64,000 bases of DNA. Source: Paracoccaceae bacterium (GTDB lineage: Bacteria > Pseudomonadota > Alphaproteobacteria > Rhodobacterales > Rhodobacteraceae). Under the pieces are notes generated by a model that was not told the DNA's origin, did not search any database, and worked only from the letters and a program-made list of their open reading frames with translations. Positions within the stretch are counted from its first letter, which is position 1, and every line of letters begins with the position of its first letter. The DNA lies in contig JAYTDA010000172.1 in the NCBI GenBank assembly GCA_043736155.1, positions 1,516 through 65,515 of the forward strand, given 5' to 3'. This document shows, in pieces, positions 42,638 through 64,000 of this stretch. Position numbers and translations under genes: made by a program.

Positions 42638-42918
42638 TGCCCGGCCTCGTTGTTTTAGCCTTTTGTGAGCCAGAACCCACAATCAGCAGGGTGTCCGACA
42701 AGGTGCGGCAGTTGCCCCCTGCCACCCTTACTAGATATGGTATGCCGAAAGCGAAACCCTGCATAGCAGTATTTTTGTGAAATTTCTGTGGACAAGTTAT
42801 GTGTGTAGCGTGACAGCAGATCCTGCATTGTTTGACAGCAGATATGGCAGCAGAACGATTTTTCGCGCTGCAGGTGCGAAGTGGGGCGGGTGGGAAGGGC
42901 TGGGCCGGGGGCTGGGCG

Positions 42919-42992
42919 GGTTGAACCGGGGGTGAAACCGGGGTTCTTGAACCGGGTTTGAACGCCGCTTGAAGGCCGGTTTGAACCCCGTT
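42919..42992. repeat. about seven 11-13-bp TTGAAC/TGAAAC/TTCAAG units
   Basis: GGTTGAACCGGG GGTGAAACCGGGG TTCTTGAACCGGG TTTGAACGCCGC TTGAAGGCCGG TTTGAACCCCG TTTCAAGCC, abutting the stop of the last tail gene. CTTGAATCCCCCTTGAACGCCC occurs at 63969-63990. Confidence 0.75.
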
Positions 42993-43358
42993 TCAAGCCA
43001 GCTTCTTCCCCACATGCACCTCTTCATACCCCGAGTTCGGCACCGTCTCCAGCGCACCGCCGGAAAAGGTCGCGTTGAACTCGCAGTGATAGACCCCGGC
43101 GTCCACGATGCCGCCCGAGGGCCAGACGAACCGCATCCAGCCGTCGACCGGGCTGACGGTGATGGTGCTGCCGTCGTCCAGGGTGACCGGCCCGGACCAG
43201 ACCGCCGCGGCGACCCGCGACAGCACCAAAGGCCCCGCCACCTTTGCCAGCGAAAAGTCCACCGTGGCCCCGGTCAGGTTGACCGGCGCACCGGTGCCAT
43301 CGCGCATCTGGCGCAGCAGCGCAGGCGAGGTATTGCCCTGTTTGATGTAAAACGTCAT
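42993..43358 (-). CDS. phage tail/baseplate-associated protein (BppU-N-like Ig domain?)
   Basis: MTFYIKQGNTSPALLRQMRDGTGAPVNLTGATVDFSL...GVYHCEFNATFSGGALETVPNSGY. The pattern D-G-x-P-V-N-L-T-G-A-T-V...Y..E is typical of the phage BppU N-terminal fold. Last gene of the fibre block. Confidence 0.55.
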   Translation of the reverse strand: MTFYIKQGNTSPALLRQMRDGTGAPVNLTGATVDFSLAKVAGPLVLSRVAAAVWSGPVTLDDGSTITVSPVDGWMRFVWPSGGIVDAGVYHCEFNATFSGGALETVPNSGYEEVHVGKKLA

Positions 43359-43359
43359 G

Positions 43360-44154
43360 TCACGCCCCCAATCCATTCCTGCCGTCCAGTCCGGCCAGAC
43401 GGTTTCTGCCGTCCCACCCGGACAGCGTGGTCCGGCTGATCCGGCCCGCTGTGCTGCGCAACCCTGACCCCGGGATGCCGACACTGCCGGTGCCGCTGCC
43501 GGTCAGGCCGAACAACCCGGCAGAGATGCCCCGCACCGGCACCGCCCCGGTTCCGCCGCCGGCAAGCGCCACAGAGCCTGCGCCCGACCCTGCCACCCGC
43601 ACGCTGCCGCTGCCGCTGCCGGTCAGCGGCAGAGCGCCCGATCCGGTGCCACTGATCCCGTTCGGGGCGGTGCCACTGCCCGCGCCGCCGAGGAGAAGGC
43701 TCCCCGAGCCAGTGCCATTCACGAGCACTGAACCGGTGCCGGAACCGCCGAGCGGCAGGCTGCCCGCGCCAGTTCCGGCAACCGCACCAGTGCCGGTGCC
43801 AGACCCGGTCAGCGCGATGGTGCCGGCAGCCGTGCCTTTGACCGCCACCGCGCCGGTGCCGGTGCCGCCGAGGGGCAAGGCCCCCGCTCCGGCACCCGCG
43901 ACTGCCGCCGCACCGGCTCCTGATCCCGTCAGCGCAACCGTTCCGGCCCCGGTGCCCGCGACAGCCACGGCACCGGTGCCGGTACCACCCAGCCCAACCG
44001 TGCCAGCCCCGACGCCTGCTACCAGAACCGTCCCGGTGCCACCGCCAGCCAGCGCCATTGTGCCAGCGCCGGTGCCGGATAGTCCCGACGCGCCGATGGT
44101 CAGCGGGTTGCTGCCAAAGACCAGCCGGTTGGTACTGACGTAAAGGACGCCCAT
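43360..44154 (-). CDS. glycine-rich fibre protein with about 20 tandem decapeptide repeats
   Basis: G-[TS]-G-[AST]-G-[TSA]-[VL]-x-[LV]-x repeated about 20 times (GTGAGTVALT GSGAGAAAVA GAGAGALPLG ...). Stop/start overlaps with both neighbours. Confidence 0.7.
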   Translation of the reverse strand: MGVLYVSTNRLVFGSNPLTIGASGLSGTGAGTMALAGGGTGTVLVAGVGAGTVGLGGTGTGAVAVAGTGAGTVALTGSGAGAAAVAGAGAGALPLGGTGTGAVAVKGTAAGTIALTGSGTGTGAVAGTGAGSLPLGGSGTGSVLVNGTGSGSLLLGGAGSGTAPNGISGTGSGALPLTGSGSGSVRVAGSGAGSVALAGGGTGAVPVRGISAGLFGLTGSGTGSVGIPGSGLRSTAGRISRTTLSGWDGRNRLAGLDGRNGLGA

Positions 44155-44558
44155 CAGAAGGCCGTCAGGGTGAACCGCCAGACATCCGCCACCTGTTCTC
44201 GGCTCAGAACCGGCTCTGCCGGCAGCCAGGACCGATAGGCGTCAATCAGCGCCATCACCCGTTCGAACCCGAAGCTGTCGGAGGCGCGCAGGCCCTTCAG
44301 GGTGGCGTAGGACACCGGGTCGGCGGCGTGCATCGCGGCCTCCAGCCCGTCCCAGACCGTCTCAAAGCCGGACAGGGCCAACAGAAAGGCAAACTGCGCC
44401 CGGTTCAGGTCCGGGAGCGGATCGGCGTAGCTGTCGATGATCGCCTGCACCGCCTTGTCGTCATCGGCCTCCCATTTGCCGTCGACCTCGGCCAGCCGGT
44501 ATCCGGCTTCGGCGATGGCCGCGTGCAGACCGGATCCCTTTTCGACATAGCGGATCAT
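44154..44558 (-). CDS. phage protein, unknown function (tail-fibre-module associated)
   Basis: MIRYVEKGSGLHAAIAEAGYRLAEVDGKWEADDDKAVQAIIDSY... ATG at 44558. Sits in the fibre gene block. Confidence 0.55.
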   Translation of the reverse strand: MIRYVEKGSGLHAAIAEAGYRLAEVDGKWEADDDKAVQAIIDSYADPLPDLNRAQFAFLLALSGFETVWDGLEAAMHAADPVSYATLKGLRASDSFGFERVMALIDAYRSWLPAEPVLSREQVADVWRFTLTAF

Positions 44559-44568
44559 GGCGGACCTT

Positions 44569-45369
44569 TCAGGTGGAACGAAGCCAGATGGCGGTGGCGA
44601 TGGCGGTGGTTGTGTCGGACACTTCACTGACCAGATAGCCCCAGGTGGCTGGTGCGGCGGTGGCAAAGGCCAGGGTGCGGCGCAAGAGCTTGCGCGGGTT
44701 GACGGTGATGTTGGATGTGGTCAGTTCCGGGGTGGTCGCGGTGCCCCAGGCCGACAGGGTGGCGGTCGACGATGTGCGCATCCCGATCCAGTAGGTCACC
44801 CCCGCCCGGAAGGTCAGCGCCACCGTTGCCTCCTTGATCCCGGTGGTGGCAAAGTCGAGCGTCGCGGTCTCGACGATCAGATTGTTCGGCAAACCGCTGG
44901 CGTCGGCATCGTAGACCACGATCTTGCCCTGTGCCGCCGCAACCAGTGTGGTCACGTTGACCGAAAGGCGGTCAATCGTCAGATCGGCGCGCGGGATGAA
45001 CGGAAAGAGGTCGATCCGGTTGAGCACCCCGGCAATGGTGCCGGTGGCACCGCCCATGCCGGTGGTGATGGTGGCGATGTAGCTGCCCGCTGCGGGGTTC
45101 TGATGCGCAAACGGCGTGCCGAAGATGATCCGGGTGATGCCGTTGATCCGCATCCGGACCTGGCCGGCCGTGGTGTTGTACCAGACCAGGCCGTTGGCCG
45201 GAGACCCGGGGTCAGCGGCCAGGGATGGGATGCTGAACCCGTTCGGAAGCAGGCTGTCGGGTGCCAGCAGATCACCGCCAAACGGCGCAGCGGCTCCGGA
45301 GCGCACCATGATCGCATCATTGGTGGTCCGGGCCCTTGGGGTGAAGCTCTCGAAATCAATGTCGGGCAT
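44569..45369 (-). CDS. phage tail fibre-module protein
   Basis: MPDIDFESFTPRARTTNDAIMVRSG...GLVWYNTTAGQVRMRINGITR... The start codon shares one base with the stop codon of the upstream gene (TGATG at 45367-45371). Confidence 0.6.
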   Translation of the reverse strand: MPDIDFESFTPRARTTNDAIMVRSGAAAPFGGDLLAPDSLLPNGFSIPSLAADPGSPANGLVWYNTTAGQVRMRINGITRIIFGTPFAHQNPAAGSYIATITTGMGGATGTIAGVLNRIDLFPFIPRADLTIDRLSVNVTTLVAAAQGKIVVYDADASGLPNNLIVETATLDFATTGIKEATVALTFRAGVTYWIGMRTSSTATLSAWGTATTPELTTSNITVNPRKLLRRTLAFATAAPATWGYLVSEVSDTTTAIATAIWLRST

Positions 45370-45770
45370 CAGGCACCGCCAGCCGTCAGGGTAAAGGAGG
45401 TGATCGTCACCTGCTGGGCCAATGCGATCACGATATTGTCCAGGGTGATATCGCCGCCGCCGCCGGTGGCGGTGACGGTGCCCTGCCAATGGCAGGTGAC
45501 CCCCTGGTTGATCCGGAAATGCGCCGCCGTACCAGCCGCATCGGCGCTGGTATCCTGCCAGCTGCCGGACAGCGCCTTGGCCCCGGCGGCGGCGGCAGCC
45601 AGCCAGTCAGACGGCAGGACCAGGGTGGCCAGCACGGTGCCGGTGGCGGCAGCAGCACAGTTGGCGGGTGCGGCACCGGTGCGGATTTCCAGCGTCGGGG
45701 CGGTGCCGATCGCGGTTTCCATCGCATCAAGAGCGGCGTTTCGGGCGACGGCAGAGAACTGGAAGGCCAT
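45369..45770 (-). CDS. small phage structural/fibre-associated protein
   Basis: MAFQFSAVARNAALDAMETAIGTAPTLEIRTGAAPAN... is Ala/Gly/Thr-rich. Coupled to the downstream gene. Confidence 0.55.
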   Translation of the reverse strand: MAFQFSAVARNAALDAMETAIGTAPTLEIRTGAAPANCAAAATGTVLATLVLPSDWLAAAAAGAKALSGSWQDTSADAAGTAAHFRINQGVTCHWQGTVTATGGGGDITLDNIVIALAQQVTITSFTLTAGGA

Positions 45771-45791
45771 GGGGATTTGCTCCTTTGATTG

Positions 45792-46889: not shown

Positions 46890-46891
46890 GA

Positions 46892-49837
46892 TCAACTCCA
46901 GAAGGGGGCGGCATCAGCGCCCCAGAAAGATGCAGTGTCCGCCAGCCAAAAGAGCCCGATCAGGGAGCCGACCGTCGTTGCATTCCACGGCCCGGCCCCA
47001 AGGCCGACGCCGCGCACCCGGATCAGCGTCTTGGCCGGGGCCAGCAGCTGCAACACATAGGAGGTTGCGGTGGTGTCGGCGACCCTTGTCCAGGTGACGT
47101 TCGGATCGGCGGGATCAGTGCCTTCGGCCATTTCCAGCCGGTAATGATCGGCCCCCGGCGCGGGCTGCCAGGCGATCAGAACCCTTGTGCTGTCGCCGGG
47201 CATCGCGCGCCCGATCAGCCCGGTGACAACGGGCAGGGTCACGACGCGCGGCAAGGAACTCATGATGACCGGCGGCGCCACCACGCCCTGATCGGCGGTA
47301 TGGACCGACGGATCTTCGGTGATCGCCTCGATCTCCACATGGTGCAGCCCGCGCGGGCGCACCGCCGCCACGCGTGCCAGCGCATAGAGCGTGCTGGCCA
47401 GGCCGAAGGCGACATGGGTCCGCTCTTCATTGCCGCCGACATAGGGGGTGATGTCGGGAGCAACCGTCAGAATGACCTGGGTGGGGATCGCGCCGGGGCG
47501 CACCGCCCAGGGGCCGCTGTTGGCACCACCGCGCTTGCGCAGGCCGACATAGTGCGTCCCGGTGCCGAAGGTGACGGGTTCGCTCAGGCTCAGCGTCAGG
47601 GTGCCCGCGTCCCAGGCCACCGCCTCGGCCGCCTGACCCCAGCCGATCATCTCGTGCTGGACCGAAATCAGATCGCCAAAGCTCGGGATGAAGCCTTCCA
47701 TCTCGGTGGCGAACTTCACCGGCCGGCGGCGGTAGCGGTTGACAGCGGCAAGATAAAGACCCTCGCGCAGCGCCTGTGCCCCGTCGGTGATGCCGAAGGT
47801 CTCGACGGTCACCGGTTTCAGGGCGGTGCTGCCCGGCAGAGTGGCGGTCACCGAGTTCGGGGCCCAGATCGCGGCGTCGAAGAACCGCACCCGGATCGAA
47901 TCGGCGGTGGCGTCGTTGGCCAGCAGATGGTCGATCTCGAACGATCCGCGCAGGATGTTGCGCGTCGTGAACATTGCCACCGGGACCGATGCCGCCTGAT
48001 CGCGCACCACCCGCAGAATGCCGCCTTGCAAAAAAGGTCGCGCGCGGCCTGCCACGGCAATCCTGGTCACCGCGTCCCACCAGGTGCCGGTCTGGTCGAA
48101 CCGCCCGTTGAAACCGTCGCCGCGTGCCGCCCAGATCGCATCGAGGGCCAGCAGGGCCGCCAGATCGATGCGGGCGTCGGCCAGACCGGCACCATAGGTC
48201 GCATCGCGCGCCGCGTCGGCAATCGCCCAGGCGGGGGATGTGGTGGCCACCGGGGCCGACCAGCTGACACCGTTCCACACCGGCAGCTTGCGGGTGGCCA
48301 GCACCTTGATCCGGCGGCTGGCCTGCGCCGACAGGTTGTTGGAGGCGCGCATCCGGATCGCCAGCAGGGTGACCGCGCCAAACGACTGCGGCTCGCGCAG
48401 ATAGGCGCGGAGCGCGGTCACTGCGACCTCGTGGCCGACGCCACTGGTCAGATCCTTGACGTCGGCCCGGAAGGCGCGCACCCGGTAGCGTCCGGGGGTG
48501 ACCGGATAGCTGAAGCTCTTGCGCACCGGGGTGCTGGTGCGGTCGGTCAGGGTCTCGGTGGCCAGGTCAACCCAGGGGCCGGTGGCCACTCCGGCATTGT
48601 CGACCGGCACCGCCTGGAGGGTCACCGACGCGCTTTTGTCAACCAGGTTGGAACCCGACAGGCCATAAAGCCCGTAAGGCAGCACCAGATCGACCGCCAA
48701 CCGGTTGGCCAGCGATCCGGCGGCATTGGCCACGAAGCCCGAAACCCCTCCCATGAGGCTGAAGATGTTCACAGTGCCGGACCCGGCACCGGTCGGACCG
48801 GTGACAGTGAAGGTGTCGGTGGCGACTCCCGTGATCGTGTAATATTCGGTTGGACCGCCGCCGGTGGTAAAGTTCAGATGGACACCCTGGCCCACGGCAC
48901 GGCCATGGGCCACTTGCGTCACGGTGATCGTGGTGGCGCTGCGGCTCCAGGTGCCGGTCATCAGCCCGGCCAGCGTCTGACCCGACACTTCCACCGACGA
49001 AATCACCGCCGACGGGAACAGGGTCAGGGCACCGCCGGGTGGCACGATCTCGGTGGTGACTTCGCTGAACGCGGTGATCGGGGTGTCCTCGATGCGGATA
49101 TCCTCGATGGCGAACTCGCCTGCGCCAAGACACATCAGCTGATACAGGAACAATTCGCCGCCGACGAACTCGGTATAGGGCATCGCCGCCAGATCGGGGC
49201 TCATGAGCAGCCGGCCATACTGCACCGGAATCGCATTCTCCAGCCGGGCCGCGTTGCCCTGGGCTTGCAGGCTGTAGGTCGGGCTGGCGGCAGGGATCGA
49301 CAGCGCGCCGGAGGATTGCTGCGGTACCAGGGCGCTGACCAGCGCCTGCCCGGCAAAGGTCAGACCGATCACCGTGGCATTGCCAAGGGCGGTAAAGGCG
49401 GTGACCCCGGTAAAGATGTTGAAGGACGAAAAGGCAGGCCCGAGCAGCCCGACGGCAAAGGGCGCAAAGACCATGATCAGCAGACTGAGCACGAGCTGCA
49501 ACGGGTTGCTGCCCCGGTCGAGCGGCAGGGTCCAGAACACCAGGTGATCGCCGTTGCGCAACCGCCGCCGCCAGCCTGCCCGCTTGAGCGGCCGGCCATT
49601 CAGGATCGCCACCACCGGCGCATTTCCGACTGGTGCCAGGCGGCGCACCCGCAGCGGGCGGCGCAAGGTGAGCTTGTAGCTGAAGCCTTCGATCTGAATG
49701 CCCGACGCCCCGCACCATGCCGCCGGTTCGCAGAGCCTGGTGATATGGGCGCGCACCTCTTCGATGTCCCAGCCCTGCACCCGTTCAAGGTAACGCAGCA
49801 CGGCATGGTCGCTGACATGGACAGGGGGGCGTTTCAC
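46892..49837 (-). CDS. host-specificity protein: gpI-like N-terminal part fused to a gpJ-like tail tip protein
   Basis: Ubiquitin-like plus hydrophobic segment like lambda gpI (VVAILNGRPLKRAGWRRRLRNGDHLVFWTLPLDRGSNPLQLVLSLLIMVFAPFAVGLLG). Then a J-like core (SPTYSLQAQGNAARLENAIPVQYGRLL...). C-terminal FN3-like WQPAPGADHYRLEMAEG. There is no ATG upstream of the gpI-like segment; the GTG at 49837 overlaps the gemA stop (GTGA). Confidence 0.75.
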   Translation of the reverse strand: MKRPPVHVSDHAVLRYLERVQGWDIEEVRAHITRLCEPAAWCGASGIQIEGFSYKLTLRRPLRVRRLAPVGNAPVVAILNGRPLKRAGWRRRLRNGDHLVFWTLPLDRGSNPLQLVLSLLIMVFAPFAVGLLGPAFSSFNIFTGVTAFTALGNATVIGLTFAGQALVSALVPQQSSGALSIPAASPTYSLQAQGNAARLENAIPVQYGRLLMSPDLAAMPYTEFVGGELFLYQLMCLGAGEFAIEDIRIEDTPITAFSEVTTEIVPPGGALTLFPSAVISSVEVSGQTLAGLMTGTWSRSATTITVTQVAHGRAVGQGVHLNFTTGGGPTEYYTITGVATDTFTVTGPTGAGSGTVNIFSLMGGVSGFVANAAGSLANRLAVDLVLPYGLYGLSGSNLVDKSASVTLQAVPVDNAGVATGPWVDLATETLTDRTSTPVRKSFSYPVTPGRYRVRAFRADVKDLTSGVGHEVAVTALRAYLREPQSFGAVTLLAIRMRASNNLSAQASRRIKVLATRKLPVWNGVSWSAPVATTSPAWAIADAARDATYGAGLADARIDLAALLALDAIWAARGDGFNGRFDQTGTWWDAVTRIAVAGRARPFLQGGILRVVRDQAASVPVAMFTTRNILRGSFEIDHLLANDATADSIRVRFFDAAIWAPNSVTATLPGSTALKPVTVETFGITDGAQALREGLYLAAVNRYRRRPVKFATEMEGFIPSFGDLISVQHEMIGWGQAAEAVAWDAGTLTLSLSEPVTFGTGTHYVGLRKRGGANSGPWAVRPGAIPTQVILTVAPDITPYVGGNEERTHVAFGLASTLYALARVAAVRPRGLHHVEIEAITEDPSVHTADQGVVAPPVIMSSLPRVVTLPVVTGLIGRAMPGDSTRVLIAWQPAPGADHYRLEMAEGTDPADPNVTWTRVADTTATSYVLQLLAPAKTLIRVRGVGLGAGPWNATTVGSLIGLFWLADTASFWGADAAPFWS

Positions 49838-50337
49838 CTGCCGGCCCCGCCCCGGTCTTGCAGACGCCGCACCTCGATCCCGGCGCGTTTGCACATCGCC
49901 TTCAGCGCATCGACCACGTCCTTGATTTCGCGCCAGTCGCGCATCGCATCGACATCGATCGGCACATGGCCCCAATGCGCCGCGAACCGCGCCCGGATAA
50001 AGGCGTTCAGTCCCTTTGGCCCGGCCACCTTCACCGCCCCCTGCTCTGCCAACAGCCGCCACAGCACATGGGCATAGCGAATATCGCCGCGCTCGGCCGC
50101 CGGGCGACCGGTCTTCACACCGGGCCGCGAGTGGTCGGGGTTGAAGCCCGGTTCAAATCCTCTGGCTTTCAGCGCCGCCAGCACCGCCTCCAGATCGGCC
50201 TGCCCCATGTCGCACATCGAGGATTTGCCGGTGACCAGCAGCTGCAGGTCGTGCCTTGTCTCGCCGTCGATGCCCAGTTCGCGGCAGCCGACATGCACCA
50301 GCTTTTGCAGAGCGGCCTTTTGCGATGGGGCTTTCAT
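49834..50337 (-). CDS. gemA: Mu gp16/GemA-like protein (DUF1018)
   Basis: MKAPSQKAALQKLVHVGCRELGIDGETRHDLQLLVTGKSSMCDMGQADLEAVLAALKARGF... shows the typical GemA family pattern. Confidence 0.8.
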   Translation of the reverse strand: MKAPSQKAALQKLVHVGCRELGIDGETRHDLQLLVTGKSSMCDMGQADLEAVLAALKARGFEPGFNPDHSRPGVKTGRPAAERGDIRYAHVLWRLLAEQGAVKVAGPKGLNAFIRARFAAHWGHVPIDVDAMRDWREIKDVVDALKAMCKRAGIEVRRLQDRGGAGR

Positions 50338-50798: not shown

Positions 50799-50823
50799 GC
50801 CACCTCGTGGATACAGTGGGCGC

Positions 50824-51467: not shown

Positions 51468-51670
51468 TCCGCCTCCAAGAGCGTCGAAGGCCGGAAGTAG
51501 GGTCGTTGCACGTCGATGCAGAGGTCAACTTTTTCTGGCCCGGCAATCACGCGGACAACGCCTTGTTTCACATAGCGTTGGACTTTCGGGTGGAGTGCGC
51601 CGCTTGCCGAAAACGCAACACTTGCTGGTAAGTGCCTGACCCAAACCGGAAGATAGGCTGAAGCCTTCAT
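51464..51670 (-). CDS. small phage protein, unknown function
   Basis: MKASAYLPVWVRHLPASVAFSASGALHPKVQRYVKQGVVRVIAGPEKVDLCIDVQRPYF... Coupled at both ends. Confidence 0.5.
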   Translation of the reverse strand: MKASAYLPVWVRHLPASVAFSASGALHPKVQRYVKQGVVRVIAGPEKVDLCIDVQRPYFRPSTLLEAE

Positions 51671-52302
51671 CACTGCCTCCCCTTGCGAAAGGCGGCGGCC
51701 TTGTGGGCCAATTTCGCGATGGCCATGATGCTGGGCTTCAGTGCGGCCGGGGCCGCGTCATAGCCGCGCCCGTACATGCCGTTCAGGCGCGGGGACATGC
51801 CGACCGGAAGTGCTTCCCAATTGGACGGGTCGGTGTTGGTCCTGTTGCCATCCAGGCACTTCAGCCGCATGCCGTCCGGCACCGGGCCGTTCACCCCTTC
51901 CCACAGCCAGCGGTGCTTTTGCACATAGCGGCGCGCGAAGCCGGTGTGCGGATTGGTTTCGGCGACGCTGATCTCGACATAGCCATCCCGCGTCACCCGT
52001 TCGTGCCCGAGGTATTTGGTGTTCCGGGGCTGTTGCCCCGATTTGAACTGGGTCCGGGCATTGTTCGGGTGCGCGGGCTGCCTCTTGCCCTTGTTGGCTG
52101 GCACATGCCCCGGCGCGTAGCCTTTGGCGATCCCATCGTTCCAGCCCTTGCGGATGCAAAGGCGTTTCACATTTTCAACGGTGACATCGCTGCGCCCGAA
52201 CCGGGCGCAGAAGCCTGTGTGCAACTGCGCGCGCGGCCAGTCCTTGTGCGCCTCGATCCACGCCAGCTCCTCCGGGATATAGTCGACCCTTGTCCGCTTC
52301 AT
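51670..52302 (-). CDS. HNH endonuclease (HNH_3 / phage homing-type)
   Basis: ...YVQKHRWLWEGVNGPVPDGMRLKCLDGNRTNTDPSNWEAL... is an HNH_3-like core (the second position is degenerate: K-C-L-D-G-N). The N-terminal WIEAHKDW..L...F..RFGR is typical of this phage family. Confidence 0.7.
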   Translation of the reverse strand: MKRTRVDYIPEELAWIEAHKDWPRAQLHTGFCARFGRSDVTVENVKRLCIRKGWNDGIAKGYAPGHVPANKGKRQPAHPNNARTQFKSGQQPRNTKYLGHERVTRDGYVEISVAETNPHTGFARRYVQKHRWLWEGVNGPVPDGMRLKCLDGNRTNTDPSNWEALPVGMSPRLNGMYGRGYDAAPAALKPSIMAIAKLAHKAAAFRKGRQ

Positions 52303-52741: not shown

Positions 52742-52751
52742 CGCTGTCACC

Positions 52752-54855: not shown

Positions 54856-55649
54856 CAGACGGCCCTCCGGCGGGCGTGACCCGCCACGGCAGTGGCGCGG
54901 CGTTCCTCGGCCATTTCCTCACGTCGCGGGGCCGGGGCTTCGCCGGTGAAAAACGCGCCTTTCCAGTCGGACCGTTGCATCCGGTTCAGACCGCGCACCC
55001 GGGCGAACTCGCTGACCATCGCCAGATTGACCGCCACCCGGCGGATCGACCGGCGCGACGCGGCCAGCAGATGGTCGCGCAGATCCCCGGCGATCTCGAT
55101 GCCGGGCGCATAGATCGGTGCCATGTGCCCGACATCGGCGAGACAGGCCGGTTCCGAGGCGACCCAGTCGAGCATCCGCCCATGCACCCGTTCCCAGCGT
55201 TGCAGCTTTTGCGGCAGCAGCTCCTCGCCGATCAGGATCACCGGCACCCCGCTGGCTTCATAAAGCCCGCGCACCACCTCGATCATCGCGTCTTTCGCCA
55301 GATGGTCGGCTTCATCCAGCAGCAGCGGCCGTCCCGACCGCGCCAGTTCCTCCGCCGCCTGGTTGAACATTTCCGGGGCGGTGCGGGCCGGGCGGTGGCC
55401 AAGCTCGATCACGATCTCCTGCAGCAAGGTCTTGGCGCGCCACAGCGCCTGCACCTGAATATGGCAGGCGCGGAACCGGTTGGTGGCATAGACCGCAGCG
55501 GTGGTTTTGCCATAGCCGGATGGTCCGTAGAATGTCGCCATCCCTGGCAACCCATGGGCGCGGCTCTTGACCCGCTCGATCAGGGTCAGCAGCGCCGCCA
55601 CGTTGCGCAGCGGTGCCACATTATTGTAAAGTCTCGGTTCGTCTGTCAT
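54855..55649 (-). CDS. MuB-like AAA+ transposition ATPase
   Basis: Walker A FYGPSGYGKTTAAVY, Walker B LLLDEADHL. Positioned directly after the transposase, as in Mu. Confidence 0.85.
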   Translation of the reverse strand: MTDEPRLYNNVAPLRNVAALLTLIERVKSRAHGLPGMATFYGPSGYGKTTAAVYATNRFRACHIQVQALWRAKTLLQEIVIELGHRPARTAPEMFNQAAEELARSGRPLLLDEADHLAKDAMIEVVRGLYEASGVPVILIGEELLPQKLQRWERVHGRMLDWVASEPACLADVGHMAPIYAPGIEIAGDLRDHLLAASRRSIRRVAVNLAMVSEFARVRGLNRMQRSDWKGAFFTGEAPAPRREEMAEERRATAVAGHARRRAV

Positions 55650-55709
55650 CCTGTATCCTCTGACTGCCCTCGTTTCGCCGGTGGGTGCCCCACACCCCCG
55701 GCGTTTGCC

Positions 55710-57848
55710 TCATCCGAAAATCGCGTCGCCCGCCTCCTCCCACAGCATCCGCTCGGCGCGATATTCCGGCTCGTTTTGATAGATCGTCAGCCAAAGCTTC
55801 TGTTCGAACGTCACCGCAGCCCCCGCCGCCAGCCCCCGTTCCAGTTCCAGCGCCCGGCGAAACCGGTCGCGCTGGCTCTCTTCAACCGGGGCCACTGCCG
55901 CGCGCTGCGCCGCCAGATCGACCACGATGCCCGCCTGAACCTCTGAGACGCCCGGCGGCAAAGCCAGCGCCGGGCGTCCGGTGGCAGCGCCAAAGGCCGG
56001 GCGCACCACCTTTGCCTCGGGCCGGACACTGTCGCTCATTCTTCCCGAAACGGGGGCGATCTGGTCCAGGCCGTCGGCAATTTCGGAAATCGTGAACTGG
56101 CGATGCGCCGCTGCCGCCTTTTTCTCGGCGGCGATCCAGGCGTTGCGGCTGCGGGCATGCACGCGGGCTTCGTCCATATCCAGGAACCCGGCTTTCTGCA
56201 TCGCGGGCGCATGGCCGAGATAGGCATTGTCCTGGCTGTAAACATGCACGCCGCTGTGCAGATCGGCGGGATCGAACCGCACCACGACGCGGCAGCCCGC
56301 GACATCATGCATCCAGGCCGCCCAATAGACATTGCCCAGGAACGCCACTTCACCGCTGCCGCGCTTGGCATTCAGCCCTTCGGCCCCCAGCAGCCACAAC
56401 CGGCGCTGTGCCTCGGTCGCCTTGCGGATCGGCGCTGTAGCATAGCTTTCGTCAAACACTTCGGCAAAGCTGCGGCCCCAGGCCACTTCCGACCGCCGAC
56501 CGGCGCGGGCATTATGTTCGGCGATCCCTTCGGCCAGAACCGCCAGAAACACCTCCAGATCGATGGCCTTGTCGCCATAATTCTCCGGCTTCGCATCCGG
56601 ACTGTTGCCACTATAGGCTCCGGCGAAACGCGGGTCTTTCGCCACGGTGCTGGCCAGATCGCGCCAGGCCCGTTCAACCGGCTTGGATTGCCCGGCATAG
56701 GGCGTGGCCCAGTGAATTTCGCAGCCAAGCAGGGTAAACAGACCCGGCAGATCGTCTTCCTTCACCTTGAACCGGTAGCGGGTTTCCGCGCCGCCGGTGA
56801 TCGCCTTGGCGGCAAATTCGCGGCCATTGTCGAACAAGACATGCTCGGGAATGCCCCATTGTTCGATCATGTCGCCTGCGGCCAGCATGACGGCGGTGCT
56901 GTTCGGGCTGCGGTCGACCCGGAACGACAGGATACGACCGGAATAGATATCCTGAAACCCGACCATCTGCGGCCGGCCGATCCATTCCGGCTGACCCAGC
57001 TTCGGGATCGCGGGCCAGCGCACAAACACATCGAACTTGTGAAAATCGGCGTTGACCGCTTCCAGCGCCACCAGGGCGGTCTTGTCGCGCACCTGTGCCG
57101 GATACAGCCGCTTCAACGCATCGGTGCCCTTGCGCGCCAGCACCTGCACCGGCATCGATACCGTCGCGTCCAGCCAGCGCCGCATCGTCCGTTCCGGGGC
57201 GATCTCCAGACCCTTGTCCAGCGCCACCCGCACCGAACGGCGGTAGCAATCGGTGAAGGGCGGTGCTTCAGGGCGGAGGAAATCCGACCGTATCAGGCCC
57301 CAGAAATCGGGATCGAACCCCTTGGTCCGTGCCCGCTCCGGCACAGCACGGTGGCGCGGTGCGAGATAGGACAGGCGGTCGCAGGCCAGCACCCCGTCGA
57401 TCAGGGCGAACCATGACCAGAGGGTCCGGGCACCCATGCTTTCCATCCGCGCCACTTCGGCAACAGCCAAATGCTTGCCGAACATGGGTTCCAGGGCCTC
57501 GACTTTTTGGACCACCAACAGCCGCTCTTGCGCCTTTGCCTTTACATTGCCGGGCAGGGCTTCGAACCACTTCCAGACTTCATCCCGCATCGGCCTTGAC
57601 GTCGAAACCTTCAACGGCTGGCCGGAAGAAAGCAGCTTCCGTAGCGCCCGTGACGGCAACAGCCGCCAGCTGTATTCCCAGCCACCGCCCCGACCTGTCC
57701 GTCGCCGCGCCATGCCCGGTTGGCTGCGCCAGCCCTCGCGCGCAATCAACAGGTTGATGCCGCGCGCCGTGGCGGGCAGATCGGGTAGACCCGCCACCGC
57801 AATTTCGTCGGCACTCCACCATTCTTGCGCTGGCGTCACCCTGGTCAT
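55710..57848 (-). CDS. MuA-like DDE transposase
   Basis: N-terminal HTH (WWSADEIAVAGLPDLPATARGINLLIAREGW). rve-type DDE triad candidates are VNADFHKFDVFV, VLFDNGREFAAK and KPVERAW. The 712-aa size fits the Mu transposase family. ATGA overlap with the ParB-like gene. Confidence 0.9.
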   Translation of the reverse strand: MTRVTPAQEWWSADEIAVAGLPDLPATARGINLLIAREGWRSQPGMARRRTGRGGGWEYSWRLLPSRALRKLLSSGQPLKVSTSRPMRDEVWKWFEALPGNVKAKAQERLLVVQKVEALEPMFGKHLAVAEVARMESMGARTLWSWFALIDGVLACDRLSYLAPRHRAVPERARTKGFDPDFWGLIRSDFLRPEAPPFTDCYRRSVRVALDKGLEIAPERTMRRWLDATVSMPVQVLARKGTDALKRLYPAQVRDKTALVALEAVNADFHKFDVFVRWPAIPKLGQPEWIGRPQMVGFQDIYSGRILSFRVDRSPNSTAVMLAAGDMIEQWGIPEHVLFDNGREFAAKAITGGAETRYRFKVKEDDLPGLFTLLGCEIHWATPYAGQSKPVERAWRDLASTVAKDPRFAGAYSGNSPDAKPENYGDKAIDLEVFLAVLAEGIAEHNARAGRRSEVAWGRSFAEVFDESYATAPIRKATEAQRRLWLLGAEGLNAKRGSGEVAFLGNVYWAAWMHDVAGCRVVVRFDPADLHSGVHVYSQDNAYLGHAPAMQKAGFLDMDEARVHARSRNAWIAAEKKAAAAHRQFTISEIADGLDQIAPVSGRMSDSVRPEAKVVRPAFGAATGRPALALPPGVSEVQAGIVVDLAAQRAAVAPVEESQRDRFRRALELERGLAAGAAVTFEQKLWLTIYQNEPEYRAERMLWEEAGDAIFG

Positions 57849-58708
57849 TCGGGCGCCTCGTCGTTTGGCGGGCGCGGCAGGCCCTTGTTTTGGGCCATCC
57901 AGATGTCCTTGGAATGTTCGGTACAGAACCGCTTGCGCGCCGCCTCCGACGCCCGTGTCCACGCGGATTTCAGCGCGAGAAACTCGGCTTCAACCGGGGT
58001 TTTAAGGGGGGTTGAACCGCCGGTTTGTTGCACCTTCCAGACGCTGCGGGCGGCGGCGGCATTCTTGGCTGTCCCGCCCGCCAGGGCATCGACAACCGCT
58101 CGCCTCTCTCCACCGGTGACGATTGTGGCGATCTGCTGGATGTCGCTCAACGTGATCCGCCGCTTGCCGTTGCGAAGGCTGCGCACTTCTTCAGTGCCCA
58201 ACACCTCCCCGGCAGCGACCATCTTTCGAACTTGCCGGGTGCTGATCGACCGTTTTTCCGCGATGATTTCTGCAAAGGAATTATAGTTCCGCTGCAGACC
58301 GTGCCTGGCCAGCGCCCCGGCAATGCCGCCCCTGGTTTCCGGATGCTCCTGTTCATGCAGCCGCTTCCATGCCGCCAGAAACACCGCGTCATCCAGCACT
58401 GACATCGCAGCGCCAGCCAGATTGCCGCCGATCTCCAGCCCGCGCGCCTCTGCGGCCGAGCAATCGTAGGCGCGCACAGCGATGCTGGCGTGGCCAAGCC
58501 GCGTCATCGCCTCCAGCCGGTGCGCACCGTCGATCAGGACATTCTGCCCACCGGTGCGCCGCACGGTGATTGGCGTGGTGAAGGCATAGGTGCCGATCAT
58601 TTCCATCAGCGCCGCCACGCCCGGTTCGGTCACCCCTCGTAGCCGGTCGTCTGGCACAAGGATCTCTGCCACCGGCAGTTCGGTGAAAGTCGGCATGAGC
58701 TCAATCAC
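57845..58708 (-). CDS. ParB/Srx N-terminal domain protein
   Basis: ...ITVRRTGGQNVLIDGAHRLEAMTRLGHASIAVRAY... is the ParB-like nuclease/CTPase box (DG.HR). The C-terminal half is helical. Confidence 0.75.
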   Translation of the reverse strand: MIELMPTFTELPVAEILVPDDRLRGVTEPGVAALMEMIGTYAFTTPITVRRTGGQNVLIDGAHRLEAMTRLGHASIAVRAYDCSAAEARGLEIGGNLAGAAMSVLDDAVFLAAWKRLHEQEHPETRGGIAGALARHGLQRNYNSFAEIIAEKRSISTRQVRKMVAAGEVLGTEEVRSLRNGKRRITLSDIQQIATIVTGGERRAVVDALAGGTAKNAAAARSVWKVQQTGGSTPLKTPVEAEFLALKSAWTRASEAARKRFCTEHSKDIWMAQNKGLPRPPNDEAPE

Positions 58709-59191: not shown

Positions 59192-59194
59192 GGG

Positions 59195-59434: not shown

Positions 59435-59436
59435 GG

Positions 59437-59927: not shown

Positions 59928-60271
59928 CACGCACACCCGGCCAGACGGGCGTCGAGCGCGATGATCTCGCCCTTTTGCGCCGAAATCAGCCCCGACCGGT
60001 CGCCGTTGGTCAGCAGGCTGACCGGAATGCCGATCAACACCACGGCCCACACGTCGCTGATCGCAGCGTCACGTTGCGTGGCCTCCAGCGCGGCCAGCGT
60101 CTGCGCCACGCCGTCACGTTTGGCCCGTGCCGCGCTGCAGGACAAAGGGTCATAAAGCCCGGCGGGCACCGGTGTCGCGGCGATGCTGTCGGGCGACGGG
60201 GCGCAGGCCCCGAGCAGCAGGGTGGCAGCCAGCGCCGGTGCCGCAAATGCGGTGAAACCCTTGCCCATCAC
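59927..60271 (-). CDS. prophage lipoprotein
   Basis: MMGKGFTAFAAPALAATLLLGAC has a lipobox (LLGAC), followed by a short soluble domain and a hydrophobic stretch (VWAVVLIGIPVSLL). Confidence 0.6.
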   Translation of the reverse strand: MMGKGFTAFAAPALAATLLLGACAPSPDSIAATPVPAGLYDPLSCSAARAKRDGVAQTLAALEATQRDAAISDVWAVVLIGIPVSLLTNGDRSGLISAQKGEIIALDARLAGCA

Positions 60272-60672
60272 GCACCTGCCTTTTTCGGCTTTGACGCCTT
60301 GAAATGCAGTGTGGTGCTGGCCGGAATGTCGACGGCGGCACCGGTGCCGGGGTGGCGGCCCACCCGGGCGGCGCGGGTCCGGGCCTCAAACGTGCCGAAA
60401 CCCTTGATCGCAACGCTGTCACCGCGATCCGTCATCTGACTGATTGCCGCCAGGAACCGGTCGAACAACCGACCCGCTTCGGCCTTTGAATAGGAGGGCG
60501 TCATCGAACTGGCGACTGCGTCGACGAGGTCACTTTTGCTATGCCGTGTCATGTCTTGGTCCTTTCTGGGTTTGCGGGGAAAATCGGGATGCTGCCGGAT
60601 CGCCAGCCCGAAGGCGGCGTCGAACGCCCGCAGCTGGTCGAGCGACAGGGCATGGAAGTCGGGCACACTCAT
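60268..60672 (-). CDS. HU/IHF-family DNA-binding protein (possibly starting at the internal ATG 60552)
   Basis: ...SKSDLVDAVASSM...SKAEAGRLFDRFLAAISQMTDRGDSVAIKGFGTFEARTRAARVGRHPGTGAAVDIPASTTLHFKASK shows the HU beta-arm signature (R-x-G-R-N/H-P-x-T-G). The 40-aa N-terminal extension is uncertain. Confidence 0.7.
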   Translation of the reverse strand: MSVPDFHALSLDQLRAFDAAFGLAIRQHPDFPRKPRKDQDMTRHSKSDLVDAVASSMTPSYSKAEAGRLFDRFLAAISQMTDRGDSVAIKGFGTFEARTRAARVGRHPGTGAAVDIPASTTLHFKASKPKKAGA

Positions 60673-60749
60673 CGCGCACCCCGGTCCGGGTCGGTTTTGC
60701 CTTGGCCCGAACCGGGGTGGCCCCTACCATCCGCCGTGCCAACAACCGG

Positions 60750-61022: not shown

Positions 61023-61039
61023 GACGCCCGACGAGATCA

Positions 61040-61282
61040 TCACGCGGCCTCCTTCTTCTTGCTGGGGCGGGGGATGTCACGGGGCCATTCAAGGTCGGCG
61101 GGCCAGTTGGCGTCAAAGTAGGTGAGTAGCGCCTCCGCCCTCTTGAGGGTGCAACCGGCCCCGCTCTTAAGATGCCCAAAGAACTTTCCATCATTGGCGG
61201 CATAGGTCGAAACCGTAGTCAGCTTCAGTCCCCGATGGGACGAAAGCATCTCTGCCAGAAGGATCAAGGCCTGGACGTTCAT
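61040..61282 (-). CDS. first gene of the early operon (Ner/Cro position), unknown family
   Basis: MNVQALILLAEMLSSHRGLKLTTVSTYAANDGKFFGHLKSGAGCTLKRAEALLTYFDANWP... Divergent from the repressor across the operator region. Confidence 0.6.
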   Translation of the reverse strand: MNVQALILLAEMLSSHRGLKLTTVSTYAANDGKFFGHLKSGAGCTLKRAEALLTYFDANWPADLEWPRDIPRPSKKKEAA

Positions 61283-61293
61283 GGCTCGCCTCT

Positions 61294-61365
61294 CGGTGTT
61301 ATTACCGACAAGCTACACGGTAGTATTACCGATAGTCAAGCGCCCTTTTTTCGGTAATAATACCG
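61294..61365. promoter_or_regulatory. three operator-like 14-bp palindromes CGGT-N6(AT-rich)-ACCG
   Basis: CGGTGTTATTACCG (61294-61307), CGGTAGTATTACCG (61318-61331) and CGGTAATAATACCG (61352-61365). They lie in the 87-bp gap between the divergent repressor and early genes. Confidence 0.75.
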
Positions 61366-61369
61366 ATTC

Positions 61370-62044
61370 GTGAAGCCCATCGCCGAAGCCTTTGCCGAGC
61401 TAGTATCCGAGCGCCTTAAAGCGTTGGGAACGAATGCATTTTCGATTGAGACGCAGTTCGACTTGCCCGAGGACTCTGTGCGAAACGTGCTGCGCAGCAC
61501 CAAGAAGGACGGACCATCTCTCTCCAAAGCTAAGGAAATTTGTGACGCTCTGGACCTTGAGATTTATGTCGGCCATCGGCGCGAGACCGGCCCAGTCGAA
61601 CACACAATCATCAACGGCGAGGACTTCGCCGCCATTCCTCGCCTCTCCGTGAGGCTCTCTGCAGGTGCTGGAGCGAACAACGAAGATGAATCCGTTATCG
61701 AAACTCTGGCCTTCCGCCGCGAGTGGTTGAACCAGCTCGGGGTCAACCCTTCCGAGTGCGTAATCGTTTCGATCTTCGGTGACAGCATGGAACCCGGTCT
61801 GCACGACGGCGATCTGGCCCTGATCGACCAAGGCAAGAAAGTGCCGCGCCCCGGCTGCATCTACGCCCTGACCGACTTCGACGGTTCCACCCGCGTCAAG
61901 CGCATTGACCTGCTGCCTGAAACCGGCCTGATCCTGCGCTCCGACAACCCACAATACCCGGTTGAACCCCGCCTGAACCACGACGCAGAGCGCGTCGAGG
62001 TCATAGGTCAGGTCGTCTGGTCGGGTCATACCCACAAGGAGTAG
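61370..62044 (+). CDS. prophage repressor, LexA/CI-like S24 peptidase family
   Basis: N-terminal HTH-like region. C-terminal S24 domain with GDSMEPGLHDGDLALID and ...TRVKRID... (Ser/Lys dyad). GTG start. Confidence 0.85.
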   Translation: MKPIAEAFAELVSERLKALGTNAFSIETQFDLPEDSVRNVLRSTKKDGPSLSKAKEICDALDLEIYVGHRRETGPVEHTIINGEDFAAIPRLSVRLSAGAGANNEDESVIETLAFRREWLNQLGVNPSECVIVSIFGDSMEPGLHDGDLALIDQGKKVPRPGCIYALTDFDGSTRVKRIDLLPETGLILRSDNPQYPVEPRLNHDAERVEVIGQVVWSGHTHKE

Positions 62045-62046
62045 GC

Positions 62047-62712
62047 ATGTCGGACGGGCCTAAATTTACTATTCAGCTGATCCACAAGAGTTGGAAAGAG
62101 ATCAAGGCCGCTGCCGAACTCGGTTCGCGCACCTGCCTCGTTTACGAGTACCTGGACGATCTGGCATCCCGACTGACTATCGACCAAGCCGTAGAGTGCT
62201 ATCGCCACGTGTTCTCGCAAACAACGATGAAGCCCGAAGTATCCGAAGGGATGCTACCTCTTTGGCTGCACGGATGGGTCAACCGCGATCAAAGACTTGA
62301 GAAGGCAGCACTTATGCCCGCCGGTGGTGACGTGAGTTGGGGCTGGTCGGCAGTTCACACTTTTAGGGATCGTTTCATCAACCTTGGCTCGTGGCCAAAA
62401 GTCTGGGAAATGTATCTTGACCTCGACAACCTTCGTGACCGCCGTAGAGGGCTAAAGTCAGAGATGGTTGAATTGCTGCGCCGAACTATTGCCGAAACCA
62501 TCCACAACCGCGCCAATGCCGCGCAAGATAACCCGGACCCGACTTCCTTCTCGTGGCGACACGGTTATGAGTTTCATTGTGACGGCGACGTTGAGCGCAC
62601 CGTCGCAGAGGAACATAGGTCAACTCTGGTGCTGGGCGACTGGCGAACCTATCCACCGTACTTTCCAGGTGACACAACTCGGATCAGACCTGTCTTCCGA
62701 AAGCGAGATTAG
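62047..62712 (+). CDS. unknown protein coupled to the repressor (candidate lysogeny-expressed exclusion/defence gene)
   Basis: 221-aa, Trp-rich protein with no motif I recognise. AAGGAG lies 6 nt upstream of the ATG, which is 2 nt after the repressor stop. GC is visibly lower than in its neighbours. Confidence 0.6.
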   Translation: MSDGPKFTIQLIHKSWKEIKAAAELGSRTCLVYEYLDDLASRLTIDQAVECYRHVFSQTTMKPEVSEGMLPLWLHGWVNRDQRLEKAALMPAGGDVSWGWSAVHTFRDRFINLGSWPKVWEMYLDLDNLRDRRRGLKSEMVELLRRTIAETIHNRANAAQDNPDPTSFSWRHGYEFHCDGDVERTVAEEHRSTLVLGDWRTYPPYFPGDTTRIRPVFRKRD

Positions 62713-62799
62713 CTCTTTCCCGTCGCTCCCGTTCCTGCTACGTTCCAACCACCCGGAACGCCGCGAGCGTCTTGTCTGCCAACCGCCGATGTTCCGCCG

Positions 62800-63012
62800 A
62801 TGCCCGATCAGATCCCCTTCCGCTGCACACCCTGCAACCGGCTGCTGTTCACGGCGGACGATGGCGCGATTGTCGGCACCCTCACCATCAAATGCCCGCG
62901 CTGCAACGCGATCAACATCCTGAGGCCCAACCGCGCCGCTTCCCCCGCGCGGTCCATCGATCAGGGCGAACCCGATTCCGCAGGCGAGAATGACCCGTTT
63001 AACCCCGGTTGA
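62800..63012 (+). CDS. com: Com-like zinc-finger protein (Mu translational activator family)
   Basis: IPFRCTPCNRLLFTADDGAIVGTLTIKCPRCNAINIL compares with Mu Com ..IRCKNCNKLLFKAD....IEIRCPRCK. It has the same C-x2-C ... C-x2-C layout and LLF-AD core. Confidence 0.75.
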   Translation: MPDQIPFRCTPCNRLLFTADDGAIVGTLTIKCPRCNAINILRPNRAASPARSIDQGEPDSAGENDPFNPG

Positions 63013-63802
63013 ACCGACCGCCCCGGTGGCCCCCTGGCTCGGCGGCAAACGCAACCTCGCCAAACGGATCTGCGCAATCCTCGATGCCATGCCCTGCCAG
63101 ACCTATGCCGAACCCTTTGTCGGCATGGGTGGCATCTTTCTGCGCCGGTCTGCGCGGCCCCGCGCCGAGGTGATCAATGATCGCGGCCGTGATGTCTCCA
63201 ACCTCTTTCGCATCCTGCAGCGCCACTATCCCCAGTTTCTCGAGGTTCTGCGCTTCCAGCTGACCACCCGCGCCGAATTCAACCGCCTCGTCGACACCAA
63301 TCCCGACACCCTGACCGACCTCGAACGGGCGGCGCGATTCCTCTATCTCCAGCGCACCGCCTTTGGCGGCAAGGTCTCCGGCCGCAACTTCGGCGTGTCC
63401 CGCGACCGGCCCGGCCGCTTCAATCTGTCAACGCTGGAACCGATGCTCGAGGATCTGCACAGCCGCCTGGCCGGTGTGGTGATCGAATGCCTCGACTTTG
63501 GCGAGTTCGTCGCGCGCTACGATGGCCCCGCCACCGTCTTTTACCTCGATCCGCCCTATTGGGGCTGCGAGAATGACTATGGCAAGGCGATGTTCGAGCG
63601 GTCGGATTTCGAGCGCCTGGCCGACCAGCTGGCCCTGCTGCAAGGCCGCTTCCTGCTGTCCCTCAATGACGTGCCCGAGCTGCACCGGATCATGGCCCGC
63701 TTCACGATAGAAACCGTTCAAACCACCTATACCATCGGCCAGCAAAACGATGCCCGCCACACCCGGTCGGAACTGTTGATCACCGGCCCCAAACACCCCT
63801 GA
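62990..63802 (+). CDS. DNA N6-adenine methyltransferase (D12/Dam class)
   Basis: PWLGGKRNLAKRI...YAEPFVGMGGIFL (SAM motif), YLDPPYWG (DPPY catalytic motif). Its start overlaps the com 3' end by 23 nt. Confidence 0.85.
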   Translation: MTRLTPVEPTAPVAPWLGGKRNLAKRICAILDAMPCQTYAEPFVGMGGIFLRRSARPRAEVINDRGRDVSNLFRILQRHYPQFLEVLRFQLTTRAEFNRLVDTNPDTLTDLERAARFLYLQRTAFGGKVSGRNFGVSRDRPGRFNLSTLEPMLEDLHSRLAGVVIECLDFGEFVARYDGPATVFYLDPPYWGCENDYGKAMFERSDFERLADQLALLQGRFLLSLNDVPELHRIMARFTIETVQTTYTIGQQNDARHTRSELLITGPKHP

Positions 63803-63826
63803 AAACACCCTTTTCGCCCAAAACCG

Positions 63827-63946
63827 CTTCCTAGTTCGCCCCGCAGCAATGCAGGTGCAGCATTTTCCTAAGCCTCTGGGATTAAAGGCGTATTCGCTAA
63901 GTGGGAAGTGGAAACCGAACTATTACGCCAACTTCCTAGTTCGCCA
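63827..63946. repeat. two direct copies of CTTCCTAGTTCGCC, 106 bp apart
   Basis: Copies at 63827-63840 and 63933-63946, in the non-coding stretch after the methyltransferase. They may be end-binding sites or host sequence. Confidence 0.5.
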
Positions 63947-64000
63947 CCCTGTCACGGTGCCATTTTCCCCCTTGAATCCCCCTTGAACGCCCTTTTTATC

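Follow-up and report, generated by a model that had tools for sequence, protein, structure and literature searches.

The Mu-like Element and Its Genes

The 64-kb stretch of Paracoccaceae DNA analyzed here (the window, 64000 nt in its entirety) carries a Mu-like transposable element, which spans the region from 42804 to the window edge (64000), approximately 21.2 kb. A previous sequence-only reading had attributed to this element an intact early/transposition module and a set of host-recognition genes, with nothing of the head or tail shaft between them, and had proposed either a recent internal deletion or a maintained element. The results presented below indicate that the locus is very probably an ordinary defective Mu-like prophage, derived by a single internal deletion of about 17 kb, and not a purpose-built element. 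The deletion is probably a one-off, in-frame and recent event.

All open reading frames (ORFs) of the element were scanned against Pfam, PHROGs and NCBIfam, and related loci and contigs (designated by L-numbers) were compared with the window. The early operon lies on the minus strand, starts at 61282 and diverges from the repressor. It comprises, in order, the gene in ner position, the HU-like, ParB-like, MuA and MuB-like genes, a regulator, and the DUF3164, HNH, helix-turn-helix (HTH) and GemA genes (Table 1). The matches in the three family collections bear out the early/transposition module and GemA as they had been recognized from the bare sequence. On the plus strand, at the far end, the CI/S24-type repressor is followed by a 221-aa ORF, a Com-like zinc ribbon and a Dam-type methyltransferase. 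The last two (62800-63802) stand beside the repressor as part of the element and are an addition to the earlier gene list; Dam is the terminal viral gene in many viral contigs of 32-38 kb.

The Chimeric tipJ Gene and the Deletion Junction

The gene directly following GemA is a minus-strand ORF of 981 aa (46892-49837), which scores 415 bits against NF040662 (cutoff 140) and also matches phrog_469/phrog_31 and Phage-tail_3. The PHROGs assignment divides this ORF into two portions: residues 1-84 match phrog_8252, a profile of 95 positions, and the J families match from about residue 330 on. Starting with residue 58 (LRRPLRVRRLAP...), the window protein aligns collinearly with TipJ proteins from their residue ~23. 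This TipJ portion is 86% identical to P0002, a TipJ homologue of 949 aa encoded in L057, and 81% identical to that of L049; at the matching stretch, L057/P0002 reads ...AVAT|LRRPLRVRRLAP. For the preceding part, tblastn aligns residues 1-56 of the 80 of gp21 from phage vB_RhkS_P1, and residues 1-54 of the 86 of the small ORF in L054, to positions 49837-49673. Full-length small ORFs of the phrog_8252 family (83-86 aa) are located directly after GemA in L003/L186, L004 and L054.

The same transition is apparent at the DNA level. Homology to the small gene of L003 stops at 49671, and approximately 90% identity to the 5' region of the L057 tipJ gene is observed from 49670, with the deletion junction at 49671|49670 in the codons ...TAC AAG CT|C ACC TTG CGC.... 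No repeat is common to the two flanks of the junction, and the homology switches within 1-2 nt. Furthermore, the TipJ N-terminus (consensus MRAxCxTVxNPFDPLGSR), strongly conserved in the family, is absent from the window protein; the lost segment of ~22 residues is replaced by 57 residues of the phrog_8252 protein.

Judging from these homologies, the 981-aa ORF is a fusion of two truncated genes. What had been taken for an intact J protein consists of the front of the small gene (residues 1-57) joined to a TipJ without its N-terminus. The "gapless" coupling of GemA and J can be explained in the same terms: intact relatives possess the same GTGA start/stop overlap of gemA and the small gene, and the coupling in the window is read as this native overlap, inherited from the small gene. 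Residues 28-38 (VRAHITRLCEP) resemble the TipJ start (MRAxC...NP) and were considered as an alternative start or junction. This candidate was rejected, because the small-ORF homology runs through residue ~56 in both protein and DNA. A match of L061 to query residues 7-980 was also discarded, since the N-terminus of L061 is an ordinary TipJ start and the extension is alignment noise.

A junction of this kind might also result from an assembly or binning artefact, in which the early arm of one Mu-like phage was mistakenly linked in the contig to the J/fibre arm of another. The source is apparently a metagenome-derived contig (ENA, NCBI and Logan sources), and related Mu-like phages co-occur in such samples. 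Against this explanation, no shared repeat is available at the sharp junction to mislead an assembler, and an independent Logan assembly of run SRR14689454 (L056, 8.1 kb) runs across the junction, from HNH through GemA and the chimera to the fibres, and encodes the identical 981-aa protein. The chimera is also found on two long contigs (75,540 and 75,497 bp), whose Dam proteins differ by one residue. An artefact is therefore considered extremely unlikely. Because the chimera occurs in three assemblies, two of them with a one-residue difference in Dam, the deletion appears to be real and fixed in the sampled population, and not a transient variant.

Loss of the Late Region

For the late genes, tblastn queries were taken from three relatives (Rhodovulum phage vB_RhkS_P1, L054 and L049). 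The set included Mor, lysin, DUF2730, TerS, TerL, portal, MuF, protease, major head, adaptor, neck, a tube candidate, tape measure and the gpL- and gpK-like minor tail proteins. It returned zero matches in the whole 64-kb window, the gpL-like and gpK-like minor tail genes and the tape measure being among the genes not found there; the early proteins and J were detected as expected. The Mor, amidase, endolysin and DUF2730 proteins of the relatives have no match anywhere in the window, and no Pfam or PHROGs match of these types is present either. The family scans of every ORF of the element gave no structural match outside the J/fibre block, and within this block no capsid, portal or terminase homologue was detected. 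The reported lack of head, tail-shaft, late-activator and lysis genes is consequently confirmed by both approaches over the entire 64 kb. The HTH protein at 50334-50798 was considered as a Mor candidate and rejected, as it shows weak, generic HTH matches only.

In the closest intact relative, L003/L186 (a 34.5-kb contig), GemA is followed by the small ORF, a methyltransferase (MTase), endolysin, DUF2730, TerS, TerL, portal, MuF and protease; the gene order of L054 after GemA is the same. The sequence-only reading had foreseen that a simple deletion remnant would be recognizable from an extra ~18 kb at this position in related elements, and both L186 and L187 do carry late genes right after the small gene. 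In vB_RhkS_P1 (38.8 kb), 17.6 kb separate the GemA stop from the J start; located there are the genes for Mor, lysin, terminase, portal, head, tail tube and tape measure, together with the minor tail genes. Given this span and an element of ~21.2-21.4 kb, the size of the deletion is estimated at about 17 kb. The state before the deletion is reconstructed from relatives at 60-87% identity.

Uniqueness among Relatives

The best 120 of 443 TipJ homologues, retrieved from a set of 5.8 billion protein clusters, originate from Gemmobacter, Cypionkella, Rhodobacter, Pseudorhodobacter and related metagenome-assembled genomes. Among these 120, the only sequence of 981 aa with this N-terminus is the identical one. 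Most of the other 119 are ~940-960 aa long, with 91-97% query cover, and are devoid of the first ~57 residues. The comparison was extended to 130 J-anchored loci (80 from viral and 50 from genomic sequences), each taken with as much as 10 kb of upstream sequence. The genomic ones were obtained by a search of genomic contigs, in which the single chimeric protein yielded no relative and the family alignment yielded the 50 loci. In none of the 130 are GemA, MuA or MuB found before J in the arrangement of the window. The genes immediately before J are gpL-like and gpK-like in 108 of the 112 loci with at least 1 kb of upstream sequence.

Two loci with early genes near J deserve separate mention. 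L053 (1-7281) was evaluated as a second element with early genes next to J and rejected, as it is a doubly deleted remnant of another architecture: its truncated MuA gives way to TerL and portal, and J is fused, at about residue 265, to a MuF-like gene. In L136 (7200-10100), the repressor and a ner-like gene are followed by gpL-like, gpK-like and J genes, without MuA and MuB. Because these two loci are remnants with different breakpoints, they and the window are best interpreted as independent decay events, not as a conserved element type. A remnant-like appearance has been reported for the majority of Mu-like prophage regions in genomes of this kind (PMC5488378). A further decayed remnant with the same TipJ type occurs in Rhodobacter viridis (L164, position 10001), where J starts at about residue 222.

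These comparisons bear directly on the second possibility raised by the sequence-only reading, a maintained, satellite-like element that supplies transposition and receptor binding only and gives its TipJ and fibres to another phage or to a gene transfer agent (GTA). Such an element would account for the intact surviving ORFs, for the in-frame position of tipJ and its translational coupling with the early operon, and for the presence of the chimera in three assemblies of the population. The evidence on the other side is more extensive. The architecture is unique among the 130 loci, and the N-terminal extension is absent from all 119 other proteins of the best 120 of 443 homologues. The family-conserved TipJ N-terminus is swapped for an unrelated peptide, and the window has neither the gpL- and gpK-like tail-tip partners nor the tape measure. 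Moreover, the gemA coupling is inherited from the small gene, and the breakpoints differ in the other remnants (L053, L136). The 64-kb window contains neither a GTA nor any other head-tail cluster, which leaves the suggested re-targeting of a GTA or resident phage without support there. A maintained element is accordingly very unlikely.

Proposed Origin of the Element

The ancestor would have been a Mu-like siphoviral transposable prophage of ~34-39 kb, from the group around vB_RhkS_P1, vB_ThpS-P1 and vB_PeaS-P1. A single deletion with breakpoints at codon ~57 of the small gene after gemA and at codon ~23 of tipJ would have taken away the remainder of the small gene along with the late activator, lysis, terminase, portal, head, tail-tube and tape-measure genes and the gpL-/gpK-like genes. 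The two stumps would have come to lie in frame by chance, giving rise to a chimeric ORF of 981 aa with the start codon and GTGA overlap of the small gene. What remains would be a defective prophage, in effect a natural mini-Mu. The deletion reading of the earlier analysis is thereby upheld, with breakpoints inside two genes, a chimeric ORF and relatives that carry the late genes.

Full-length relatives have counterparts of its early and transposition genes, its repressor and its right end. The element may still be repressed, induced and transposed, because the repressor, transposase, MuB and right end look intact; from its gene content, it would be unable to lyse the cell or to build particles. 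The deletion placed tipJ and the fibre genes behind the early operon, so that they are presumably transcribed together with it, most plausibly as passengers and not for a selected function. A role of the chimeric TipJ in another particle is unlikely, because both the conserved N-terminal segment and the assembly partners are missing. A working natural mini-Mu, which on induction transposes, expresses the chimeric TipJ and fibres from the early operon and is packaged by, or donates receptor-binding proteins to, a co-resident Mu-like phage, is given only a very slight chance. If true, it would represent a transposable satellite that alters the host range of its helper.

Several points weigh against a simple deletion. 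The left end and any target-site duplication probably fall outside the window, and no near-identical (>95%) intact sibling was found among the relatives. The occurrence of the chimera in three assemblies is a further such point, and the intactness of all surviving ORFs together with the in-frame fusion would also be expected under selection. Neither of these last two features requires selection, since an in-frame join has a chance of one in three and the recency of the event explains the intact ORFs. Finally, the early arm and the J/fibre arm could perhaps derive from two resident Mu-like prophages.

In this last case, illegitimate recombination between two Mu-like prophages in one cell, or between a prophage and an infecting relative, would have produced a hybrid without the late region. 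The best early-arm matches (L003/L004) and the best TipJ match (P0002, 86%), which is encoded on a short contig, were not obtained from one and the same contig, so that the two arms need not share a common ancestor. The variable position of Com/Dam in the family also shows modular exchange. No specific counter-evidence stands against such an event, whose outcome and significance would equal those of a simple deletion; it is nevertheless judged highly improbable, and a single internal deletion is retained as the origin of the element.

Ends and Binding-Site Arrays

The right end of the element opens with 5'-TGTAGCG... at 42804, in agreement with the ends of relatives, and its sequence is ~80% identical over 59 nt to their end sequences. 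L025 and L026 carry an inverted copy of this terminus just past Dam, and L005 has one in direct orientation. The termini of L021, L025 and L026 end in ...GCTACA (...CGCTACA in two of the three). The repeats that follow the right terminus (Table 1) are presumed to be transposase-binding sites.

A terminal inverted repeat with a 5-bp target duplication inside the window was considered and rejected. A motif scan of 63803-64000 did not detect the right-end motif in inverted orientation, nor does this interval hold any TG...CA pair accompanied by a matching 5-mer. In L005 the left terminus lies ~420 nt past Dam, on the basis of which the left end of the element is probably located ~200 bp beyond 64000. 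With the left end placed as in L005, the full length would be ~21.4 kb, which is only an estimate because this end is probably outside the window. Of the ~21-kb element described earlier, the right boundary is thus fixed at 42804, and the left one is probably not inside the window.

In L005 (IMGVR_UViG_3300037751_000439), the stretch ~415-445 nt past the Dam stop reads ...ATTGGTGTCAACGTACA|GCTGT|TGTAGCGTGACATCAG... and looks like left- and right-end Mu-like termini abutted with a 5-bp spacer, which suggests a circular or tandem end-to-end junction in this metagenomic contig. Between Dam and the left end presumed beyond the window, the element carries an array of TTCCTAGTTCGCC sites, and analogous arrays of other sequence are observed at the same place in L005, L007, L012, L017 and L023. 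Arrays of this type may be binding sites.

Repressor Side and Early Region

The short divergent region between the repressor and the early operon contains ATTACCGA repeats, which probably act as operators. Homologues of the gene in ner position adjoin the repressor in L004, L008, L018, L022, L024, L046 and L136. In the window and in L003/L004/L005, the Com-Dam pair is found at the left end, beside the repressor and in the same orientation. In other relatives (compare L065, L136, L141, L157 and L158) it is found at the right end, downstream of the fibres. In Mu itself, com-mom occupies the right end. By this comparison, the Com-Dam module has evidently moved between the ends within this phage group.

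In the interval 60444-61043, a 192-aa plus-strand ORF (60444-61022) overlaps a 124-aa minus-strand ORF (60669-61043), which had previously been taken for an early gene. Both overlapping frames are conserved in L136 (8163-8903), so that either strand may be the coding one in this interval between the ner-like and the HU-like gene. A 114-aa ORF of the early region (59927-60271, minus strand) shows a lipoprotein-type signal (…LLLGAC…) and no family match; it could be a superinfection-exclusion or surface protein.

Table 1. Positions and supporting matches of the features annotated in the window
Feature	Coordinates	Strand	Evidence or remarks
proC	41297-42109		
YbjN-family gene	42134-42682		
Right end of the element	42804..42870		terminus 5'-TGTAGCGTGACAGCAG, then repeated TGACAGCAGAT-type sites (42809-42855)
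Last ORF of the element, 163 aa as listed	42993..43484	-	weak phrog_1084 match; no Pfam/NCBIfam match
Gly-rich repeat protein, 264 aa	43360..44154	-	no family match
ORF without assigned function, 170 aa as listed	44154..44666	-	no match in Pfam, PHROGs, NCBIfam
phrog_25093-family protein, 306 aa as listed	44569..45489	-	E=9.5e-49; homologue downstream of J in L063
Virion structural protein family, 133 aa	45369..45770	-	phrog_3758, E=6.5e-27
Tail-fibre-like protein, 367 aa	45792..46895	-	weak phrog_2712 tail-fibre match; homologue immediately after J in most loci
TipJ portion (lambda J-like host-specificity/tail-tip), residues 58-981	46892..49670	-	without the first ~22 native residues
5' remnant of the small gene, codons 1-56/57	49671..49837	-	phrog_8252; gp21 of vB_RhkS_P1; fused in frame to tipJ
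GemA	49834..50337	-	PF06252, E=3.9e-14; 73% identical to L003 GemA
HTH protein, 154 aa	50334..50798	-	weak HTH matches; phrog_323/phrog_24591
HNH endonuclease-domain protein	51670..52302	-	PF13392; homologues in L005, L054
DUF3164 protein, typical of Mu-like early regions	52752..53462	-	PF11363, E=5e-69
Early transcriptional regulator	54304..54855	-	phrog_2030; homologous to gp12 of vB_RhkS_P1
MuB-like AAA+ transposition protein, just downstream of MuA	54855..55649	-	AAA_22
MuA-type DDE transposase, full length	55710..57848	-	DDE_2 (2.9e-48), HTH_Tnp_Mu_1, HTH_Tnp_Mu_2, Mu-transpos_C
ParB-like protein	57845..58708	-	phrog_3264, E=2.6e-49
HU/IHF-type DNA-binding protein	60268..60672	-	PF00216, E=5e-23
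First early gene, ner position	61040..61282	-	phrog_7669
Divergent control region	61283..61369		87 bp; ATTACCGA repeats at 61301 and 61325, inverted copy at 61351
CI/LexA-type (S24 peptidase-like) repressor	61370..62044	+	34% identical to the CI-like repressor of vB_RhkS_P1; weak NCBIfam S24-type matches
221-aa ORF, no assigned function	62047..62712	+	no PHROGs match; also in Logan contig L002
Com-like zinc-ribbon protein	62800..63012	+	PF10122 Zn_ribbon_Com on the identical gene in L001, L002; overlaps the Dam start
Dam-type (D12 class) adenine methyltransferase, last left-end gene	62990..63802	+	PF02086
Array of TTCCTAGTTCGCC sites	63828..63945		copies at 63828 and 63933; inverted half-site CGAACTA at 63916

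Genes Downstream of tipJ and Window Context

Six ORFs downstream of J had been described as fibre-type. Only the first of them, whose L057 homologue is 78% identical over the full length, is fibre-like in a consistent manner; the others are the phrog_3758 virion structural protein, the phrog_25093 member, the Gly-rich protein and two ORFs without family assignment. Homologues of the phrog_3758 protein, 62-78% identical, are located downstream of J in L063, L139, L140 and L161. The Gly-rich protein is possibly a fibre component, and a similar Gly-rich ORF occurs downstream of J in Rhodobacter capsulatus SP18 (L161). For the last ORF of the element, the true start is probably internal. In L057 (ena:ERZ27314301:k141_5199764, 2900-5657), a single fibre gene follows J; beyond it lie an ORF on the minus strand and a Pterin_4a gene with the appearance of host DNA, so the distal fibre block is much shorter in L057 than in the window.

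The window has a high G+C content, and up to ~42.7 kb its genes are chromosomal and of ordinary type. They include an amidohydrolase, an OmpA-domain protein, RTX/cadherin proteins, an amino-acid permease, a 2-hydroxyacid dehydrogenase-like ORF and a class II aminoacyl-tRNA synthetase (Asp/Lys/Asn type), with proC and the YbjN-family gene closest to the element. A low-G+C island at 32000-34600 (0.53 vs ~0.63 around) contains a P63C-domain ORF (32663-33688, minus strand) and may have been acquired as a short piece of foreign DNA, with no relation to the Mu-like element.

Significance

The correct annotation of the locus is very probably that of a defective Mu-like prophage, with the 981-aa ORF as a fusion artefact of the deletion; neither a new kind of I-J protein nor a new class of element would be involved. 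The case provides a clean example of prophage decay, resolved to the base pair, in a poorly studied group, the Mu-like siphoviruses of Rhodobacterales, and illustrates how an in-frame deletion can mimic a purposeful, tightly coupled gene arrangement. Should transposition still occur, the element would constitute a natural mini-Mu that could serve as a genetic tool. Beyond annotation, its importance is small.

Comparison with Known Systems

RcapMu was the first described example of the Mu-like siphoviruses of Rhodobacterales. The early gene order of the window is the same as that of vB_RhkS_P1 (NC_031059), vB_ThpS-P1 (Thiobacimonas) and vB_PeaS-P1 (Pelagibaca). The common order comprises the CI-type repressor, ParB-like protein, MuA, MuB, regulator, DUF3164, GemA and the gp21-like protein, and a lambda J-type tail tip at the far end is shared as well. 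In full-length alignment, MuA shares 45-49% identity with the vB_ThpS-P1, vB_RhkS_P1 and vB_PeaS-P1 transposases. For the MuB-like protein, the identity to the "DNA transposition protein" of vB_RhkS_P1 is 56%, and for DUF3164 it is 60%. In contrast to these phages, the window lacks everything from gp21 codon ~57 to J codon ~23, where vB_RhkS_P1 has its 17.6 kb between GemA and J, and the element measures ~21 kb instead of 38-40 kb. Its TipJ is of a shorter type (~950 aa vs 1845 aa in the reference phages, with ~25% identity), and Com/Dam stand beside the repressor, unlike in the reference phages.

The left arm corresponds to that of IMGVR_UViG_3300001594_001536 (L003/L186, 34.5 kb) and IMGVR_UViG_3300038336_000119 (L004/L187, 31.8 kb), where Dam is likewise located at the repressor end. 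In the comparison with the L003/L004 left arm, identities amount to 79% for Dam, 85% for MuB (the L003 protein), 77% for DUF3164, 73% for GemA and 48% for the small ORF. After the small ORF, L003/L004 continue to MTase, endolysin, TerS, TerL, portal, MuF and protease, whereas the window jumps into tipJ.

The architecture of the window does not recur among the 80 viral and 50 genomic loci or the best 120 of 443 homologues, in which respect it differs from PICI/P4-type satellites and GTA accessory loci. Like laboratory mini-Mu/Mud derivatives and defective remnants, the element keeps at least one verified end, the repressor, A and B, and has lost its morphogenesis genes. Unlike these two kinds of element, it retains the distal tipJ/fibre block, fused in frame to an early-region gene.

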